Positions 1,988-31,183 of a stretch of DNA of 32,000 bases are shown one piece after another. The stretch covers positions 180,001-212,000 of the forward strand of contig CP013062.1 in assembly GCA_001430755.1 (NCBI GenBank), read 5' to 3'. The DNA is from Candidatus Peribacter riflensis (GTDB lineage Bacteria > Patescibacteriota > Gracilibacteria > Peribacterales > Peribacteraceae). Under the pieces are notes generated by a model that was given only the letters and a program-made list of their open reading frames with translations, was not told the origin of the DNA and did not search any database. Each line of letters starts with the position of its first letter. Position 1 is the first letter of the stretch. A program made the translations under genes and the position numbers.

Positions 1988-2397
1988 AGGTGTCTGCCGC
2001 TTCCCTTGCCCGGGCGTTCGTAGAGATCGCAAAGACGATTCCGGAAGGGGACGTGGGTGCGCTTGGGGAGGCTGCCGCCCAGATGCTGATTCAGCACGGA
2101 CTGACCAGGCAGTCACATGCCTTTCTGCGTCTCGTGGAGCGCGAGTGGCTCAAGCGCGATGGCGCAGTGCCCGTGCGCATCACGACCGTATCGGGCCATG
2201 CCGGCCCTCTGGCGAAGGAGATTGCGGATACTGTCGAGAAGGCTCTCAAGCGCGCCTGTCATATCGAGGAGCGTGCCGACCCAGCGCTGATGGGGGGCGT
2301 CCTCCTCCAGGTCGGCGATGAGCGGTACGATGCCACCCTTCGTGGTGCCCTCTCGGTGCTCGCAGCCCGCCTCGCCGAGCCCGTCTCTGTTTCCTAA
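1984..2397 (+). CDS. atpH: F0F1 ATP synthase subunit delta (OSCP), short form of 137 aa
   Basis: The C-terminal 'DPALMGGVLLQVGDERYDATLRGAL' matches the OSCP signature. Located between the b and alpha genes. Confidence 0.8.
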   Translation: MKVSAASLARAFVEIAKTIPEGDVGALGEAAAQMLIQHGLTRQSHAFLRLVEREWLKRDGAVPVRITTVSGHAGPLAKEIADTVEKALKRACHIEERADPALMGGVLLQVGDERYDATLRGALSVLAARLAEPVSVS

Positions 2398-2437
2398 CCC
2401 TCCCCCTAACCCTCACCCTATCCCTCCCCCCTAACCC
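2393..2437 (+). repeat. C-rich hexamer tract (CCCTAA/CCCTCA/CCCTCC/CCCTAT) filling the atpH-atpA spacer
   Basis: The sequence 'cctaaccctccccctaaccctcaccctatccctcccccctaaccc' runs directly into the atpA ATG at 2438. It is the complement of the GGGTKA units seen at 5008, 19755 and 23757. Confidence 0.75.
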
Positions 2438-3967
2438 ATGTCCGTCAGCCAGACACTCCTCAAGGCCCTCGAAGATCGCGTCGCATCCTATCGCAAGGAT
2501 GTGAAGCATGAGCACGTCGGCACGGTGCTCTCGGTCGGTGACGGTATCGCCACGGTTTCGGGCCTCTCGAAAGTCGGTGCCGCAGAAATGATCGATTTCG
2601 GCAAGGGCGTGATGGGGGTGGCGTTCAACCTCGAAGAGGATCACGTGGGTGTGATCGTGCTTGGGGATGACAGCAAGATCAAAGAGGGCGATACGGCCAA
2701 ATCGACCGGCCAGATTCTTTCGGTGCCCGTGGGCGAGGCAATGATCGGACGCGTGGTGAATCCGCTGGGCGAGGCCAAAGACGGCGGCTCGGCCCTTGCG
2801 AGCAAGCAGCGCTACCCGATCGAAAAGATCGCCCCCCGCGTTATCGAGCGCAAGTCCGTGACCGTGCCGCTCCAGACCGGTATCAAGGCGATCGATGCAC
2901 TCATCCCCATCGGGCGCGGCCAGCGCGAACTCATCATCGGCGACCGCCAGACGGGCAAGACCGCCGTGGCGCTCGATGCCATCATCAACCAGAAAGAAAC
3001 GCAGAACACGGATCGCCCTGTTATCTGCATCTACGTCGCGATTGGCCAGAAGGAATCCAAAGTCGCCAAGATCGTCTCGGAACTCAAAAAGCACGGTGCC
3101 ATGGAGTACACCATCGTCGTCTCGGCCGGCGCATCAGAGCCCGCGTCGCTCTCGTACATCGCCCCCTTCGCGGGATGCGCCATGGGCGAGTACTTCCTCG
3201 ATCAGGGCAAAGACGTGCTCTGCATCTACGACGATCTCTCGAAGCACGCCTGGGCCTACCGCCAGGTCTCGCTGCTGCTCCGTCGTCCTCCGGGACGCGA
3301 GGCCTACCCGGGCGACGTGTTCTACCTCCACTCCAGGCTCCTCGAGCGTGCGTGCTGCCTGGATGAGAAGCATGGCGGTGGATCGCTCACGGCTCTGCCG
3401 ATCATCGAGACGCAGGCCGGCGACATCTCCGCCTACATCCCCACGAACGTCATTTCGATCACCGACGGACAGATCTACCTCGAATCCGATCTGTTCTACA
3501 AGGGCATCCGTCCCGCGCTCAACATCGGTCTTTCGGTCTCGCGTGTGGGATCCGCCGCACAGCGCAAATCCATGAAGAAAGTTGCGGGGCGCCTCCGCAT
3601 CGACCTGGCCCAGTACCGCGAGCTGGCGGTGTTCGCGCAGTTCGGATCTGACCTCGATGCCGAAACCAAAAAGCAGCTCGACCGGGGAGCGCGCTTAACC
3701 GAGCTCCTCAAGCAGGAGCAGTACGTTCCGGTACCCGTGGCGGAGCAGGTGTCCGTGCTCTACGCCGGTGTGAACAGCCTGCTCGATGACGTGCCCGTGG
3801 ATCAGATCCGTCGCTTTGAACGGGAGTTCGTTTCGTTCCTCCGCAACAAGCATCCGCAGCTCTTAAAGGAGCTCACGGCCGAGATCAAGCCCGAGACGGA
3901 AGAGACGCTGAAGAGGCTTCTTCAAACGTTTAAGGCCGAAGCAGGATTTATTTCTGTTTCCAAGTGA
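2438..3967 (+). CDS. atpA: F0F1 ATP synthase subunit alpha
   Basis: 509 aa. Walker A 'GDRQTGKT' and '[21 protein letters not shown]'. Full-length alpha pattern. Confidence 0.97.
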
Positions 3968-4030
3968 GAATTATGAATGAGGAATTATGAATTAAGTATG
4001 GCGATATCATGCGTTATTCATAATTCTCAC
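3964..4030. repeat. AT-rich inverted repeat (hairpin) in the atpA-atpG spacer
   Basis: GTGAGAATTATGAAT (3964-3978) is the exact reverse complement of ATTCATAATTCTCAC (4016-4030). The left arm includes the atpA stop codon. Tandem GAGGAATTATGAAT units lie inside, and a pyrimidine tract 'ttcttcattcttcattcctttcctc' follows. Confidence 0.85.
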
Positions 4031-4077
4031 TTCTTCATTCTTCATTCCTTTCCTCACTCCAACCACTCGCTCAATAC

Positions 4078-5004
4078 ATGGCTCGCAGTCTCAGAGACTT
4101 ACGGCGCAAAATGAAGGCCATCAAGGCCACCCACCAGGTGACCAAGGCCATGGAGCTCGTGGCGGCTTCCAAGATGCGCCGCGCGGTCTCGAATGCGCAG
4201 AAGCTGCGGCACTACGCCTTCCTCGCGTGGCAGGTATTGCAGAAGCTGGCCGATGTGCATCCCGAATTGCATCCCTACCTGCAGAAACGAGAGCCGAAGA
4301 AGATCCTCGCGATCCTCTTCACACCCGATCGCGGAATGTGCGGCAACCTGAATGCCCAGTTGCTGCGCACGACCACGCAGTACATTCAGGGCCTCAAGAA
4401 GCTCCCCACGTTCGAGTCCGTCGAATTCATTGCGGTCGGCCGCAAGGGCCAGCACTTTCTGCCGCGCATGAACCAGAAGGTGGTTGCAGCCTTCCCGGCC
4501 TTCTCGAGCTACCCCACCTTCAAAGATATCCTGCCCATCGCCCGCATGGCCACCGAGGGCTTTCTTGCGGGAACCTACGACTCCGTCTCGCTCATCTACC
4601 CCGATTTCATCTCGGCCCTGGTCCAGGAATCGACGGTGAAGGTGTTGCTGCCGTTCTCGACGACCGAGCTCAAAGAAATGCTCGAGAGCCTGCTCCCGCG
4701 TAAGTACCGCAAAGAATCGCAGGCCGCCCTCCACGCCGAGGGGGTGGGGGAATACGTCCTGGAGCCTTCGGCCGATGCGATTCTGCAGACCATCCTGCCC
4801 CAACTCACCGAGATCCAGGTCTACCAGGCCATTCTGGAAGCCGGCGCCTCGGAGCACTCTGCGCGGATGGTGGCGATGCGTGCTGCTTCCGACAACGCCA
4901 CGGAGCTCCTGGATGATCTCACTATCGTCTACAACCAGACGCGGCAGGCGAAGATCACCTCAGAGCTCTCGGAGCTGACGGCGGCCAAGGCGGCGCTGGA
5001 GTAG
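4078..5004 (+). CDS. atpG: F0F1 ATP synthase subunit gamma
   Basis: 308 aa. N-terminal 'IKATHQVTKAMELVAASKMRRA' and C-terminal 'NQTRQAKITSELSELTAAKAALE' are typical of gamma. Confidence 0.93.
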   Translation: MARSLRDLRRKMKAIKATHQVTKAMELVAASKMRRAVSNAQKLRHYAFLAWQVLQKLADVHPELHPYLQKREPKKILAILFTPDRGMCGNLNAQLLRTTTQYIQGLKKLPTFESVEFIAVGRKGQHFLPRMNQKVVAAFPAFSSYPTFKDILPIARMATEGFLAGTYDSVSLIYPDFISALVQESTVKVLLPFSTTELKEMLESLLPRKYRKESQAALHAEGVGEYVLEPSADAILQTILPQLTEIQVYQAILEAGASEHSARMVAMRAASDNATELLDDLTIVYNQTRQAKITSELSELTAAKAALE

Positions 5005-5007
5005 GAA

Positions 5008-5028
5008 TAGGGTGAGGGTTAGGGCAGG
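5008..5028. repeat. GGGTKA-type G-tract motif copy
   Basis: 'tagggtgagggttagggcagg' lies immediately after the atpG stop codon, in the convergent spacer before the minus-strand gene ending at 5039. Confidence 0.6.
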
Positions 5029-5038
5029 ATTCCAGTCT

Positions 5039-5956
5039 CTATTTGGCAGCCGGCGCCGTTTTCGTGACGATGCGGATATCCATGCCTTTCGCTGTGTACT
5101 CCTGTGTCTGCTGCCTCAACGCAGTGATGATTTCCTGCGCAATCTGCGGACGGGCAGGATCCGAAAAGACGATGAACGTAAACTGCGGGAGCTTCTCGCC
5201 GTAGGCATGGCTGCCTGAAGCGATCTTGAGGGCCAGGAGGGCCTCTTCGATGGCGTGCGGAACGTTGTGCGGATCAGAGACCGTGAAGGCGTTGATGCCT
5301 GGCAGTCTCTGCAGTCGGCCGTCGGTACAGTCCACTGCTGCCGCAATGCCGGTGTGCGGCCCTTTCGTCATGGGCGCATCGCCGGTGTGCACGGCGTTGA
5401 TGCCGCGGGCTTTGAGTCGTTCGACGATGGTACCGCGCTGGAAGTTTTCTGCTGCCTTGTCGGGGTTGGGGGACTCTCCGAAAGCGATTCCGGCAGCACC
5501 GCAGGCGATGTGTGAGCTTAACTTTACCGTGATGGAATGGAGAGGCCGTTCCTTCCCAAGTGCGGTGACGTAGGTCACGACGGCATCGACGAGTTCATCT
5601 ACGTTCTTCCAGAGCACGCCCGATCCGGCCATGCGGAGCACGCGCTTGCCGGACTGCGTGGTCGCCTGCAGAAGCATGCGCTCGTCGATGCAGACCATCT
5701 CCACTTCGGTGACGGGTGCATTGCTGCAGTCGAAACATTCCTGCCACTGCTTCTCGTGGTCATCGAGCCATTCCTCGGGCTTCTGATTGAAGGGGTGGGC
5801 GAGTTCTTTTGCGAGCAGCGGAACCATATCGGGGTGGTGTCCGTGTTCTGCAGCGTGATCATCGTGTGACTGAGCAGTGGCCATATCGGGGAGGAGGGAA
5901 GTGGTGAGGGCGGCTGTACCCGTCAGGGTTTCTTTCAGGAAATCTCTGCGCGTCAT
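5039..5956 (-). CDS. Tat-signal protein with a beta-carbonic-anhydrase-like Cys/Asp/Arg...His/Cys zinc motif
   Basis: The ATG at 5956 is preceded by AGGAGGA (4-nt spacer). N-terminus 'MTRRDFLKETLTGTAALTTSLLPDMATA' is a twin-arginine signal. It is followed by the His-rich 'HDDHAAEHGHHPD'. 'VCIDERM', 'VLRMAGSG' and 'SSHIACGAAG' follow the beta-CA pattern CxDxR...RxAG...HxxCG. The longer ORF start at 6052 was rejected. Confidence 0.6.
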   Translation of the reverse strand: MTRRDFLKETLTGTAALTTSLLPDMATAQSHDDHAAEHGHHPDMVPLLAKELAHPFNQKPEEWLDDHEKQWQECFDCSNAPVTEVEMVCIDERMLLQATTQSGKRVLRMAGSGVLWKNVDELVDAVVTYVTALGKERPLHSITVKLSSHIACGAAGIAFGESPNPDKAAENFQRGTIVERLKARGINAVHTGDAPMTKGPHTGIAAAVDCTDGRLQRLPGINAFTVSDPHNVPHAIEEALLALKIASGSHAYGEKLPQFTFIVFSDPARPQIAQEIITALRQQTQEYTAKGMDIRIVTKTAPAAK

Positions 5957-6140
5957 GGCATCCTCCTGGGATGTGTGCCCGGTTTTCTGTGGGGGATCTT
6001 CGTCATGATACGGCACTTCAGTCATGGTGATGAGGGAAGAATTTCGAGGCATACTAAGGATTGCAGCAAGACTTTCAAGGCTCTAGGTGCAAAGAAATCC
6101 TAACATTGAATAAAAAAATTGTTCAAACAAGAGGTCGGAG

Positions 6141-6171
6141 AAAAACGGGCCACCACGAGGATCGTGGCCCG
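6141..6171 (-). terminator. rho-independent terminator of copA
   Basis: Read on the minus strand: CGGGCCAC, a 10-nt loop, GTGGCCCG, then TTTTT (plus-strand A-run 6141-6145). It starts 17 nt after the copA stop codon. Confidence 0.75.
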
Positions 6172-6187
6172 TTCCGAAACCGTGTTA

Positions 6188-9100
6188 TCACTTTTGAATC
6201 CTCAGCGTCGCAGGCACGAAATGCAGCTGGTCGAGGATGGTATCCGTCTTCGGGAGGATGCCTGCGATCAGCACACGGTTGCCGAAGAAGCCGTCGATGA
6301 CGTCGCCTGCATTGGTGAAGAGACCGTTTTCGATCATCATCTGCGCCTCGCTCGACCCCACGAAGATGGGGGTGGTGCGCTTGCCGTCGATGATGCGCGG
6401 CTCAAGGGCGAGGAGAGTGATGATCGAACGGAAGGTGGGGGGAATAGAAGCCGGAGTCGTCATGAACGCAAACAGCTTCAGATCGCCTTCATCATTCACG
6501 CCGAGGAGGGTTGCGCCCGAGGCAATGACCTCGAACGAGAGCCGGTTCACGATGTGTGCGAGATCGAGTGCGGTGCCCGTGGGTTTCAGGATGCCGATGA
6601 CCGTGGGAGTGGGCATGCCGAGGAATTCCTGGACCGTGTCGCCGATGCTGGAGTATTCGCCTTCTTCCCGCATGGCTGCCCCCTCCAATGAGCCGAGCAC
6701 CAGTTGCCGGTCACTCAGGGTCGCGGTCGTTCCCTCCTCAGCGGGGAGCGAAGCCGGGAGCGTATCTGTGCCGATGAGGAACTCCGGATCGGATCCCTCG
6801 TAGGCGATCACCGCCGTCTTGGGCGTAATGAGAGCGCTCACCTCCTGTACCGTCTGTGCGGGGATGCCCGTGCCCGGGCCGCTCTTCATGAGCGATGAGC
6901 TGAAGGCCGCAAATTCCAGAAAGAGCGCCGTGAAGGCGATCATCAGCACGAAGGGCGCCAGGAAGGAAATGAAATTGCGCTTGCGGGGCTTGAAGAAACG
7001 GATGAGCAGAGAGTTCGTCACGACGGAGATCGAGCTGAAAGCCATGGCGAGGCCCGCAAGCTCCGGCTGCAGCAGAAGCCCGAAGGTCGTATAGAACGCG
7101 CGGGCGGCGATGGGGATGCCGATCACGTTGTAGAAGAGCGCGAAGAACATGTTCTGCCGGATTTTGGACATGGTTTCCCGGGCGAGTTCGAGGGCGGTCA
7201 CAACGTCATTCAGGTCGTCTTTGATAATCACAATGCCGCCTGTTTCCATCGCCACATCCGTGCCCGAGCCCATGGCTATCCCTACATCGGCTTGTGCGAG
7301 TGCGGGGGCGTCGTTGATGCCGTCACCCACCATGGCGACCTTCTTGCCGCCTTCCTGGAGCTTCTTCACCTCGTTGGCCTTATCTTCGGGCAGCACCTCG
7401 GCGAGCACGGTGGTGATGCCGATCTCGCGGGCGATGGCGTTGGCGGTACGTTCGTTATCGCCCGAGATCATGACGATCTGCAGGCCCATGTTTTTCAGCG
7501 TCTGCACGGCTTCGCGTGATGTTGCTTTGACGGTGTCTGCAACGGCAACGGCGCCGAGAAGCTCTTTTTCCGTTGCGAGGATCATCACGGTTTTACCCTG
7601 CTCCTCCAGCTTGCGAATTTTGCGATCCTCCCGGCTGAAGGGGAGCCCCGCGATCTCGGTCATGAGCAGCCGGTTGCCGAAGTAGTACTTGGTGCCGTGG
7701 ATCACGCCCTCGATGCCGTGACCGGGGATGGCCGCAAATTTTTCAACATCGCCCGTCTCGATTCCTTCTTCTGTGGCATGGTTGGTGATCGCTTCGGCGA
7801 GGGGATGCTCGGAGGAGCGCTCCAGGCTTGCGGCGATTTCCACGATGTCTTCTTCTGCCATCGAACCGAACGTGAGAACATCGGTCACCTCAGGCTTGCC
7901 GTGCGTGAGCGTGCCGGTCTTGTCGAAGATGATGGTCTGGATCCTGCTCGCGGCCTCCAACGGCTCTCCGCCCTTGATGAGAATGCCGCGTTCGGCGCCC
8001 TTGCCGGTGCCCACCATGAGGGCGGTGGGTGTTGCGAGCCCGAGTGCGCAGGGGCAGGCGATGACGAGCACCGACGTGAAGGCCATGAGCGCGAACGAGA
8101 GCGACGCGCCGAAGACGAAGTACCACAGGCCGAAGGTCAGGAGTGCGATCAGGATAACAGCCGGAACGAACCACGCGGATGTGCGGTCGGCGAAGCCCTG
8201 AATGGGGGCCTTGCTGCCCTGTGCCTCCTCGATCAGACGGATGATCTGCGCGAGGGTCGATTCCTCGCCCACGCGTTCTGCCCGGAATTCGAAGCTTCCG
8301 TTCTTGTTGATGGTGGCTCCAATCACTTTATCGCCTGCATTTTTTTCTACAGGAATACTCTCGCCGGTCAGGAGGGATTCATCGACCGACGAATGCCCTT
8401 TGGTGATGGTGCCGTCCACGGGCACGGTCTCACCCGGACGCACGAGGATGATGTCGCCCACGGCCACGTCGTCGACGGGGATATCCACGGTCTTGCCGTT
8501 GCGGACCACGCGTGCGGTCTTGGCCCTGAGGCCCATCAGTTTGCGGATGGCGTCGGAAGTGCGTCCTTTCGCTTTGGTCTCGAGCCACTTGCCGAGCAGC
8601 ACAAACGTGATGAGGAACGCGGAGGTCTCGAAGTAGAGCTCTGGGATTTTGGCTCCCTGCAGCCCCAGAACTGTATTGTGTGCGGAGGCGAACGCGATGA
8701 AGTTGAACACGCTGTACACGTACGCCGCCGATGTGCCGATGGCGATGAGGCTATCCATGGAGAATGTCCACATTCTCAGGCTCGACCAGAATCCCTTGTA
8801 GAAGCCGGCACCCGCGATGAATTGCACCGGCGTGGCAAGTACGAGCGAGACGACACCGACGTACGCCGGAAACACCACGGCTCCCGGCAGCCACGGGAGA
8901 AAATCCAGCAGCATGAAGTAGAGCATCGGCGCACTCAGGACGAAGCTGAAGAGAAACCCGCGGCGGTAGTGGCGGATTTCCGCTTCGCGCTTGCGCCGGT
9001 CAAAATCGCGATCCTTCTCATCAACCAGAGTGGCCGTGTAACCGGCCTTCTGCACTGCCCGAACAAGATGGTCCACATTCGTCTTCGATGCGTCGAAGAG

Positions 9101-23245: not shown

Positions 23246-24001
23246 TTAGAGGAGTGGTGTTTTCTTCGGTTCCCCGACGGCCCGCGGATACTTCTTGCTC
23301 GTCTTTGCCCGTTTCCTGAAGACTAAGATCTGGCGCTTGCCCCAGGCGCTGCCCAAGTCGTATGCGTAGGGCTGTTCGATCTGACAACTGAGCTCCGAGC
23401 GGGCGAGGAGAGAATCGTGCAACTCCTGGTCAATGGTGAGGCTCTTCCAGCAGAGGATCGTCCCGCCCACGTTCACGAAGGGCGCTGCCAGTTCCAGCAG
23501 CACATTGAGCTCGGCGAGCGCGCGTACGAGTACAACGTCATACTGTTCGCGCTGCGCGCTCTCGCGGGCGAGTTCCTCCGACCGGCCGCAGATCAGGCTG
23601 ACATTCGGGATCTGCAAGGCATCAATGATGCGCTGCACGGCGGCGATTTTTTTCTGCGTGGCATCCATCCCTACGAAAGAGCACTGCGGCAGACAGAGGG
23701 CGAGTGGCAGCAGCGGAAAGCCCCCGCCGGTGCCGAGATCGAGGATGCTCGGAGCAGGGTGAGGGTGAGGGTTAGGGTTAGGGTGAGGGTGAGGGTTAGG
23801 GTTAGGGTTAGGGCTAGGGGAGAGTGTACGCAATGGCTCCGTTTCCAGTGCGGCAAGCGAATCCAGAATATTTCCCGTCCAGCAGGCCTCGGGTGTACGG
23901 AAGGCCGAGAGATTGAGTTTCGCGTTCTCCTGGAGGAAGGCGTCGCGGAGCGCTTCCAGCCGACTGTGCATCTCTTCTGCAATCATGAGATTTGAGGGCA
24001 T
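23246..24001 (-). CDS. rsmG: 16S rRNA m7G methyltransferase RsmG (GidB) with a Pro-Asn/Pro-His repeat insertion
   Basis: 251 aa. 'ILDLGTGGGFPLLPLAL' SAM motif and 'VVLVRALA'. The insert 'SPSPNPNPNPHPHPNPNPHPHPAPS' sits immediately N-terminal of the SAM motif. Confidence 0.9.
   Translation of the reverse strand: MPSNLMIAEEMHSRLEALRDAFLQENAKLNLSAFRTPEACWTGNILDSLAALETEPLRTLSPSPNPNPNPHPHPNPNPHPHPAPSILDLGTGGGFPLLPLALCLPQCSFVGMDATQKKIAAVQRIIDALQIPNVSLICGRSEELARESAQREQYDVVLVRALAELNVLLELAAPFVNVGGTILCWKSLTIDQELHDSLLARSELSCQIEQPYAYDLGSAWGKRQILVFRKRAKTSKKYPRAVGEPKKTPLL
23757..23820. repeat. 10 tandem GGGTKA hexamers (TTAGGG/TGAGGG, telomere-like) plus a terminal GGGG, inside rsmG
   Basis: Direct reading gives GGGTGA x2, GGGTTA x2, GGGTGA x2, GGGTTA x3, GGGCTA, GGGG. 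That is eleven G-tracts on the plus strand, which is the template strand of rsmG. Confidence 0.95.
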
Positions 24002-30498: not shown

Positions 30499-30592
30499 AA
30501 GAATGATGAAGGAAGAATTATGAAGTAAGAATGACTTCCTTTTCATCATTCTTAATTCCTAATTCATTATTCTTAATTCCTAATTCATTATT
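30499..30592. repeat. AT-rich hairpin plus a perfect 21-bp tandem duplication, overlapping the UDG 3' end
   Basis: AAGAATGATGAAGGAAG (30499-30515) pairs with CTTCCTTTTCATCATTCTT (30535-30553), leaving a 2-nt bulge. 'tcttaattcctaattcattat' is repeated exactly at 30550-30570 and 30571-30591. It shares the GAATTATGAA word with the 3964-4030 element. Confidence 0.85.
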
Positions 30593-31183
30593 CTTCTTCG
30601 TTGTCTCGAGAAACAGCCCCAGCGCTCGGAAATCCTCAAACAGTGCCTCTCGCAGATTTCCGTTATGCAGCGCAGCGGCGGGGTGGTAGATGGGGAAGAC
30701 CGTGACGTCATCGGTCAGCTTCTGGGGCTTGCCGTGGGCGGCGGTGATGCTGAGCTTCTGGAAGAAGTGCCCCAGGGCATGGCGTCCGAGCGGAACGATC
30801 ACCTTCGGTTTGATGAGAGCCATCTCCATCTTGAGCCACGGCATACACTGCGCCTTCTCATCATCGGTGGGATCCCGATTCGCGGGGGGGCGGTACTTCA
30901 CGACGTTGCTGATGTACACGTCTGCACGCTTGAGCCCGATCGACATGAGGAGCTCATCGAGGAACTTGCCTGCGGGTCCCACGAACGGGCGTCCGAGTTT
31001 GTCTTCCTGTTCGCCCGGCGCTTCGCCGATGAACATGACCTCCGCCTGCGGATTGCCTTCGCCCAGCACGGGGTTAGCCGTTTCGTGCAGCGGACAGCCT
31101 TTCCATGCCTTCAGTTTCTCCTGCAGGAGCGGGAGGGTGAGTTCCATCCCCGCCATGGTAGCACCAGCCACCCCTCTCTTCAT
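30518..31183 (-). CDS. family-4 uracil-DNA glycosylase with a repeat-encoded C-terminal tail
   Basis: 221 aa. 'GEGNPQAEVMFIGEAPGEQEDKLGRPFVGPAGKFLDELL' and 'HPAAAL'. The tail 'NNELGIKNNELGIKNDEKEVILTS' is encoded by the AT-rich repeat. Confidence 0.9.
   Translation of the reverse strand: MKRGVAGATMAGMELTLPLLQEKLKAWKGCPLHETANPVLGEGNPQAEVMFIGEAPGEQEDKLGRPFVGPAGKFLDELLMSIGLKRADVYISNVVKYRPPANRDPTDDEKAQCMPWLKMEMALIKPKVIVPLGRHALGHFFQKLSITAAHGKPQKLTDDVTVFPIYHPAAALHNGNLREALFEDFRALGLFLETTKKNNELGIKNNELGIKNDEKEVILTS

Follow-up and report, generated by a model that had tools for sequence, protein, structure and literature searches.

Rickettsia palindromic elements (RPEs) and other repeats resembling MITEs (miniature transposable elements with inverted repeats) insert in frame in protein genes, and human telomeric sequence folds into G-quadruplexes in vitro. 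ShiLan is an in-frame insertion in the gene of a DNA methylase from a phage; it encodes an endonuclease, a hidden HNH nuclease (PMC11855218), and was the nearest published analogue found for the nuclease-containing loops described below. The subject of this study was a 32,000-nucleotide stretch of DNA (referred to as the window) from the groundwater bacterium Candidatus Peribacter riflensis, corresponding to approximately 180-212 kb of the RIFOXYC2 genome (58.5% GC), in which a telomere-like hexanucleotide array was found within rsmG (gidB), the putative gene of the 16S rRNA m7G527 methyltransferase. The array belongs to a known class, being a further coding microsatellite that is kept in frame within a permissive loop, and the result for the window itself is modest.

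An in-frame hexanucleotide array in a variable loop of RsmG

The plus strand at window positions 23757-23820 reads GGGTGAGGGTGAGGGTTAGGGTTAGGGTGAGGGTGAGGGTTAGGGTTAGGGTTAGGGCTAGGGG and contains eleven tracts of three or more G with a strict 6-nt spacing. Tandem Repeats Finder detected a period of 6 at 23756-23819 (10.7 copies, 93% matches, 0 indels, and a score of 93), together with a 24-nt super-period, (TGAGGG)2(TTAGGG)2, of 2.4 copies with 97% matches. The minus-strand open reading frame (ORF) 23246..24001 (251 aa) reads the array as ...LSPSPNPNPNPHPHPNPNPHPHPAPSILDLGTGGGFP... / ...AALETEPLRTLSPSPNPNPNPHPHPNPNPHPHPAPSILDLGTGGGFPLLPL..., using the codons CCT AAC and CCT CAC and no stop, and the resulting peptide, SPSPNPNPNPHPHPNPNPHPHPAPS, directly precedes ILDLGTGGGFP. 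The CCC TAA frame of the same unit is closed, and therefore the unit can provide stop codons at gene ends, yet it is read as CCT AAC inside rsmG. Gap-free head-to-tail units, a unit length that is a multiple of 3, an open frame, and copy-number polymorphism (see below) are the properties of an in-frame coding microsatellite or variable-number tandem repeat (VNTR), and all four were found in this array. The first-pass annotation of this DNA had described ten in-frame hexamers in rsmG, a G-rich plus strand that is the template strand of the gene, and a repeat length that is a multiple of 3 and keeps the frame; the letters themselves, Tandem Repeats Finder, and the translation of the minus-strand ORF all agreed with this description.

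The repeat was over-represented in the window. The 12-mer TNAGGGTNAGGG (with no more than one mismatch) occurred 18 times, against 1.34 expected and a maximum of 4 in 100 shuffles, and three arrays with at least three G3N3 units were present, against a mean of 0.45 in Markov simulations; the rsmG array was the longest of the three G3N3/C3N3 arrays. Watson-Crick folding of the rsmG array gave no structure on either strand (minimum free energy (MFE), 0 kcal/mol), and it is therefore a plain direct repeat. An inverted-repeat scan found no hairpin at this site, only unrelated AT-rich hairpins elsewhere, and a palindromic insertion of the MITE/RPE type was rejected for the array on account of the missing inverted repeat and the MFE of both strands. 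No family was matched in an Rfam scan of the window. On the opposite strand, an antisense ORF of 192 aa, 23417..23995(+), translates the array into (RV)n; we regarded this ORF as arising from the open frame of the repeat, with no evidence of a gene.

In the published annotation of Ca. Peribacter riflensis RIFOXYC2_FULL_PER-ii_58_32, gidB/rsmG is located at 203332..204072(-) (PMC4736985, supplement 2). The genes ftsJ and pyrE flank rsmG both in that annotation and in the window, and the remaining gene order also agrees. The product is 246 aa from the ATG of the published annotation, and the 251-aa ORF starts at another in-frame ATG further upstream, at 24001. Significant similarity with the RsmG/GidB family was found using Pfam (PF02527; 97.6 bits versus a cut-off of 27, E=7.5e-28), and the sequence matches in PDB were RsmG from Thermus thermophilus (3g88, E=4e-31) and GidB from Bacillus subtilis (1xdz, E=2e-29). 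Its closest homologues were listed under Candidatus Peribacteraceae/Peregrinibacteria. By sequence and by structural model (see below), the gene is assigned to RsmG/GidB, the predicted m7G527 methyltransferase of 16S rRNA. The first-pass annotation had regarded rsmG as an "essential-class" gene, and this could not be upheld: loss-of-function mutants are viable in Escherichia coli, B. subtilis, Mycobacterium tuberculosis, and Streptomyces, with low-level streptomycin resistance (PMC9456066), and the gene is dispensable in these model bacteria.

The array lies within the loop that connects the N-terminal helical part with strand β1, and this loop is hypervariable (Table 1). In alignments of 29 and 91 orthologues, the motif DLGTGGGFP (the GxGxG S-adenosylmethionine (SAM)-binding motif after β1) was invariant and the flanks of the loop were nearly so (GN.LDS... 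and DLGTGGGFPLLPLA), and the segment between them was not alignable. Loop lengths were measured in 107 RsmG orthologues from Peregrinibacteria in which both anchors were present: the median was 18 aa in a range of 14 to more than 200 aa, with 19 aa or fewer in 64 of the 107, 20-49 aa in 30, and 150 aa or more in 13. Loops of 20-49 aa were proline-rich (16% proline versus 5% in short loops). RsmG proteins from T. thermophilus and B. subtilis have approximately 8-10 residues at this position, versus approximately 31 in the window protein.

An AlphaFold2 model of the window RsmG, built on the 91-sequence alignment, had a mean predicted local distance difference test (pLDDT) value of 91.1 and a predicted template modeling (pTM) score of 0.89, and superposed on the structures of GidB from B. 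subtilis (1xdz; TM 0.83/0.87 using Foldseek) and RsmG from T. thermophilus (3g8b; TM 0.78-0.84). Residues 61-84 were modeled as coil (DSSP) with pLDDT values of 61-65, between a short helix (57-60) and strand β1 (85-89). In class I methyltransferases, SAM is bound at the C-terminal end of β1. The loop enters β1 at its N-terminal end, and is therefore near the SAM motif in the sequence, not in space. The model accordingly predicts that the insert is a disordered, surface-exposed linker on an otherwise ordinary RsmG fold, and the proposed insertion immediately upstream of the SAM-binding motif of a normal RsmG is in agreement with Pfam, the orthologue alignments, AlphaFold, and Foldseek.

Length polymorphism and related arrays

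Overlapping assemblies were compared using the window plus 10 kb fetched beyond each end. Between this sequence and ENA contig k141_418847, two segments of 10,845 and 10,960 nt (approximately 21.8 kb) were shared with no single-nucleotide polymorphism, and only two differences were detected. The rsmG array differed by an indel of 24 nt, and a sister array located between atpH and atpA differed by one of 12 nt (CCTAACCCTCCC). At the protein level, P0122 (238 aa), a member of the 90%-identity cluster of the window RsmG, lacked exactly eight residues, NPNPHPHP. The +12 allele of the atpH-atpA array in this contig was also found in a JGI contig and, by coordinates, in the published RIFOXYC2 genome (a 52-nt versus 40-nt spacer). 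The rsmG allele of the window was unchanged in three independent assemblies (GCA_003509365.1, GCA_001787775.1, and GCA_003500185.1), the rsmG length in the published complete genome agrees with it (246 aa), and all of the observed rsmG alleles were intact ORFs. Gaps between the window and L001/L002 at approximately 29.4 and 19.8 kb were scaffolding N-runs, not variation. Since no array reaches the length of a read and the alleles differ by exact repeat units, assembly error appears to be much less likely than real length polymorphism. This comparison of assemblies bore out the length variation that had been anticipated, with a 24-nt allele in an otherwise identical strain. A further cluster member, P0123 (JGI, 252 aa), had the same array as the window and a C-terminus that differed after residue ~235, a difference suggestive of a frameshift or of an error in assembly.

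Among more distant relatives, hexamer arrays that were shorter or carried mutations were found in orthologues down to 56% identity with the window RsmG, and occupied the same position of the loop in the same frame (Table 1). In one of these (L210), a C>T change was spread through every unit. In a contig profile search with the RsmG alignment, all of the relatives returned had at most 54% identity, and many unrelated phyla were matched as well. The pattern in the relatives is that expected of a microsatellite with turnover of its units, rather than of a conserved peptide or an array that has spilled over from a spacer. A peptide conserved among orthologues without periodicity in their DNA had been named beforehand as evidence against the reading of the first-pass annotation, and was not seen; the periodicity was found wherever the peptide was present. 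The window array is located approximately 170-230 nt inside the rsmG ORF from the start codon, and this internal position, together with the orthologous arrays at the same loop site and in the same frame, suggests that the array grew in place from a local seed. The origin proposed by the first-pass annotation, an intergenic microsatellite that expanded into the gene, found no support, on the same two grounds.

The two other arrays in the window are both intergenic (Table 1), and in this sense the claim that the unit is dispersed in intergenic spacers was substantiated; no further hexamer arrays were found in the 10 kb beyond each window end, and "dispersed" corresponds to a density of approximately 3 arrays per 52 kb. 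The stop codon of atpH, TAA (2395-2397), is part of the first unit of the atpH-atpA array, and the ATG of atpA (2438) follows directly after the last unit, with no Shine-Dalgarno-like sequence. An 18-mer, CCCTAACCCTCACCCTAT, is common to the atpH-atpA array and the reverse complement of the array next to atpG, which hints that the arrays are not fully independent. In the relatives L086 and L088, a CCCTAA-type array begins at the TAA stop of the UDG gene and extends as far as the GTG with which the next gene starts (4231-4259 and 2185-2222, respectively), and the orthologous spacer in the window species has AT-rich repeats instead. Variant units look genome-specific and common to the rsmG and intergenic arrays: CCCTCA in the window, CCCTAC/CCCCCTA in L088, and CCTAAT in L086. 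A second, AT-rich repeat family, with GAATTAT/TTCATAA heptamer-type units and long imperfect hairpins, was noted in the window at 3967-4041 (the atpA-atpG spacer) and 30499-30595 (the spacer between the UDG gene and the next gene).

Table 1. Positions of the arrays, the rsmG gene and loop, and DUF559 insertions (identities are to the window RsmG).
Feature	Sequence	Position	Strand	Description
Predicted rsmG/gidB, 16S rRNA m7G527 methyltransferase gene	window	23246..23986	minus	Pfam, PDB sequence search, AlphaFold + Foldseek, published annotation
Hypervariable loop, N-terminal helical part to strand β1	window	23750..23842	minus	Codons for residues 54-84 of the 251-aa ORF
In-frame hexamer array	window	23757..23820	minus (coding)	(CCCTAG)(CCCTAA)3(CCCTCA)2(CCCTAA)2(CCCTCA)2; peptide PSPNPNPNPHPHPNPNPHPHP; plus strand G-rich
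24-nt super-unit	window	23785..23808	minus	Four hexamers, 8 aa; missing from the ENA contig k141_418847 allele (P0122); placement within the repeat arbitrary
Sister array of C-rich hexamers	window	2393..2437	plus	CCTAACCCTCCC, period 12; fills the whole atpH-atpA spacer
Short sister array	window	5007..5024	plus	ATAGGGTGAGGGTTAGGG; between convergent atpG (stop 5004) and ORF 5039..6052(-)
Array in orthologous rsmG	L086			79% identity; AGCCCTAACCCTAATCCTAATCCTTCTCCT; peptide SPNPNPNPSP
Array in orthologous rsmG	L088			71% identity; (CCCCCTA)3(CCCTAC)3(CCTAAC)2(CCTAAT)2; peptide PTPYPLPPSPTPTPTPNPNPNPNP
Array in orthologous rsmG	L209			56% identity; (CCTAAC)3.5
Array in orthologous rsmG	L210			70% identity; (AACCTT)4; peptide NLNLNLNL
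Array in orthologous rsmG	L211			56% identity; mixed
DUF559 nuclease-fold domain in rsmG loop	L084	10196-10648
DUF559 nuclease-fold domain in rsmG loop	L085
DUF559 nuclease-fold domain in rsmG loop	L216	210-1328
DUF559-bearing RsmG proteins	P0013, P0016-P0019, P0028, P0032, P0034, P0039, P0049, P0069, P0091, P0113

Origin of the array and alternative explanations

We consider, with good confidence, that the array is a nearly neutral coding hexanucleotide microsatellite (a small VNTR), which arose and expanded in place in a permissive loop of RsmG in the Peribacteraceae lineage. A short CCCTAA-type seed (encoding PSPNP) at the loop may have been extended by replication slippage or by unequal exchange between units, and the exchanging unit here would mostly be the 24-nt super-unit (CCCTAA)2(CCCTCA)2. 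Since the 6-nt unit has no stop in the frame that is used, each gain or loss would only add or remove Pro-Asn or Pro-His dipeptides in a linker that enters β1, on the Rossmann-fold side that faces away from the SAM pocket. The function of RsmG is probably retained, and the variants would not be purged by selection, which may filter only for an intact frame, guaranteed by the 6-nt unit. The high rate was probably helped by the lack, in this small genome, of a recognizable MutS/MutL mismatch repair system and RecQ/Pif1-type helicases: the published annotation contains mutS only as a sub-threshold 148-aa match, and lists no mutL, recQ, or pif1. A G-quadruplex on the G-rich template strand may also add to the instability.

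Several points weigh against this explanation. Both rsmG alleles come from assemblies, even though the arrays are shorter than the read length and differ by exact multiples of the unit. The absence of mismatch repair is taken from a single published annotation table. The variant units common to different loci, and the 18-mer shared by the two intergenic arrays, are not obviously predicted by local slippage; they hint at ectopic conversion or a common source, in a small sample in which chance may equally play a part. Furthermore, a linker rich in proline and histidine could affect 30S binding or metal binding.

A broader explanation, which we regard as unlikely, is a lineage-wide repeat system of Peribacteraceae, of which the window array would be one product rather than an isolated outcome of slippage, and in which CCCTAA-type hexamer arrays, GC hairpins, and a DUF559 cassette bounded by such hairpins repeatedly colonize gene boundaries and the RsmG loop, where they are translated in frame, and in which variant units are homogenized across loci by ectopic conversion or by a common templated source. 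The loop would then serve as a "landing pad" for selfish DNA, and DUF559 would be a homing-type nuclease read through in the host protein. Hairpins of this kind and the DUF559 cassette were found in relatives, outside the window. In at least 13 of the 107 orthologues, the same loop contained DUF559 (PF04480; E=1e-24 to 1e-30) as a complete domain, covering positions 4-108 of the 109 in the profile, in the host frame (Table 1). The DUF559 domain of L084 is flanked by perfect GC hairpins, CCCCTTCCTC-CACAA-GAGGAAGGGG and CCCCCTCTC-TCGTG-GAGAGGGGG, which are translated as PLPPQEEG and SPSLVERG, and around the DUF559 domains of the Peregrinibacteria in general the flanking hairpins read PLPP..EEG and PPP.EEGLGVEV in translation. 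Many of the intermediate-length loops resemble solo hairpins, for example, PSPVERGLGGEV and PHPPSPSPNGGGGAEG. In a filled/empty pair (L216 versus L217), the cassette was located between 8-nt direct repeats (CATCCCCC/CATTCCCC) beside a hairpin, and the empty allele keeps only the hairpin CCCCCCTCTCC-CGTG-GAGAGGGGG; the 8-nt repeats are compatible with either a target-site duplication or a microhomology-mediated deletion. L211 contains a free-standing DUF559 gene of 129 aa (5904-6293) between nearly identical direct repeats of approximately 135 nt (5700-5845 and 6340-6475), each with two GC hairpins of the type found inside rsmG. The divergence of DUF559 was weakly correlated with that of the host core (r=0.13), with identities of 49% for DUF559 and 65% for the core, which is compatible with vertical inheritance accompanied by losses as well as with repeated gain. 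In this phylum, the loop of RsmG is generally a hot spot for insertions, and takes GC-rich hairpins and DUF559. A family of hairpins with a C-rich and a G-rich arm (e.g. CCCTTCCCCC-GGN-GGGGGAAGGG) was also noted in other Peribacteria (L084 1240-1335 and 6750-6795; L009 9835-9875; L005 10130-10190), in intergenic regions and, in L005, inside the rsmG loop in the G-rich orientation.

The same DUF559 data bear on a narrower alternative, in which the window array is the footprint of a mobile element: the left arm of a hairpin-bounded DUF559 cassette, left behind when the cassette was lost and then expanded by slippage. The occurrence of the complete domain in exactly the same loop, its in-frame translated hairpins, the loops resembling solo hairpins, the L216/L217 boundaries at an 8-nt direct repeat, and the free-standing gene of L211 with the same type of hairpin are all in favor of this possibility. 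The array, however, has no G-rich partner arm and does not fold, and its CCCTAA/CCCTCA unit is unlike the hairpin arms; in L084, moreover, the PSPNP seed is separate from, and upstream of, the left hairpin. The window loop contains neither DUF559 nor a hairpin, only the Pro-Asn/Pro-His array. Using tblastn with ten DUF559 inserts, no match was found in the window or in the extra ~20 kb of the species, and a DUF559 search of the window and 88 loci found only the rsmG-embedded copies of L084 and L085 (the L211 copy was found separately), whereas hexamer arrays are also present at intergenic sites with no DUF559 nearby. Since the polymorphism also consists of exact repeat units, an origin of the array as such a footprint is highly doubtful.

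An equally doubtful possibility is that the array is a selected element: a template-strand G-quadruplex, or a coding-strand i-motif, would tune the transcription of rsmG, the pyrE promoter, or replication, or the Pro-Asn/Pro-His linker would itself be functional (as a spacer or in metal binding), with the repeat number as a tuning knob. With a potential quadruplex defined as at least four tracts of three or more G, loops of 1-7 nt, and a G4Hunter score above approximately 1.5, the array falls within the definition: eleven G3 tracts, 3-nt loops, and a score of 1.62-1.68 for the G strand. ViennaRNA with quadruplex energies predicted two tandem quadruplexes on this strand (-29 kcal/mol, with parameters for RNA). 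In rsmG, in the atpH-atpA spacer, and in the L088 spacer, the sense strand is the C-rich one, which could reflect selection, and the array is located approximately 225 nt upstream of the divergently transcribed pyrE. The GC skew of the window is positive, and dnaA is annotated at approximately 617 kb in the published numbering. On the other hand, the number of G3 tracts in orthologous arrays is 0 in L210, 1 in L211, 3 in L209, 3 in L086, and 9 in L088, versus 11 in the window, and 64 of the 107 orthologues have no insert; neither the quadruplex potential nor the peptide is conserved. Because the G3 tracts are not conserved across orthologues, quadruplex formation is unlikely to be a selected property, or the reason for the existence of the sequence. 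The strong G-quadruplex potential described by the first-pass annotation therefore holds at the level of the sequence, and does not extend to conservation among orthologues. In addition, no Rfam match was obtained, and on/off switching of the gene by frameshift is not possible with a hexamer whose frame is open. A phase-variable on/off contingency locus was rejected for the same reason: the hexamer is in frame, both alleles are intact ORFs, and the array is not in a promoter.

Although the unit is that of the vertebrate telomere and the 16-mer CCCTAACCCTCACCCT is common in unrelated marine contigs, an artefact or contamination (a chimera with eukaryotic telomeric reads, or a repeat collapsed or expanded by the assembler) is scarcely credible: the array is in frame with conserved RsmG codons on both sides, several independent assemblies contain it in identical form, the length of the gene in the closed 1.248-Mb genome agrees with it, shorter homologous arrays are present in other species, and at 64 nt it is shorter than a read. 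In the metagenome scan for this 16-mer, at least 120 short contigs were obtained (L089-L208; mostly marine by contig prefix, with a median GC content of 65% and often several copies per contig), and among those listed none was Peribacter-like beyond the repeat itself. A telomere was rejected as well: the array lies inside rsmG, which has conserved genes to its left and right, and the genome is reported to be circular and closed, at 1.248 Mb (PMC4736985). The same paper makes no mention of telomere-like repeats. The likeness to the vertebrate telomere is a coincidence.

Comparison with known systems

The hexamer arrays are the fastest-changing sites of the compared region, being the only differences over approximately 22 kb between two strains with a 1.25-Mb genome of the candidate phyla radiation (CPR), and the locus may be usable as a strain marker (VNTR) for Ca. 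Peribacter populations. One of these arrays is tolerated within a conserved rRNA-modification enzyme, and marks a natural site of tolerated insertion in RsmG. Across the phylum, this loop accepts from 0 to more than 200 extra residues, including a whole DUF559 domain with translated hairpins. This DUF559/hairpin pattern, which lies outside the window, is more novel than the array, and bears on selfish DNA inside genes and on the tolerance of proteins to insertion.

In the RsmG proteins of the relatives with DUF559, as in ShiLan (PMC11855218), a nuclease segment is contained in a methyltransferase gene without stops, and the prediction is that it protrudes from the host fold as a loop. They differ in the reading frame: the HNH nuclease of ShiLan is read out of frame, whereas DUF559 is in the host frame, and this comparison applies to the relatives, not to the window gene.

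Similar to eukaryotic telomeric and interstitial (TTAGGG)n repeats, the array has the same hexamer, the TGAGGG variant, and the G3N3 spacing. It differs in its location inside a gene, on a bacterial chromosome that is circular and 1.25 Mb long (PMC4736985), with no chromosome end, no known telomerase (no search aimed at it was made), and only approximately 10 units.

RPEs are also lineage-specific repeats tolerated in ORFs and translated as an extra surface segment, a description that fits the GC-hairpin inserts of other Peregrinibacteria RsmG proteins. The window array, in contrast, is a direct tandem repeat with no palindrome and no defined element ends.

With phase-variable contingency loci, the array shares a hypermutable simple repeat in a gene, and the loss of rsmG would be selectable (streptomycin tolerance) in model bacteria (PMC9456066). 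The 6-nt unit in an open frame, with no frame shift and no on/off switching, sets it apart from them.

The closest resemblance in kind is to the in-frame coding VNTRs, or simple sequence repeats, of bacteria: head-to-tail units that are a multiple of three, a copy number that differs between near-identical strains, a low-complexity linker in a tolerant region, and slippage or unequal exchange as the presumed mechanism. Unlike these, the array occupies no surface or antigen gene but that of a housekeeping rRNA methyltransferase, in a CPR bacterium with a small genome; its unit happens to be the telomeric hexamer, and the sister arrays form complete intercistronic spacers.

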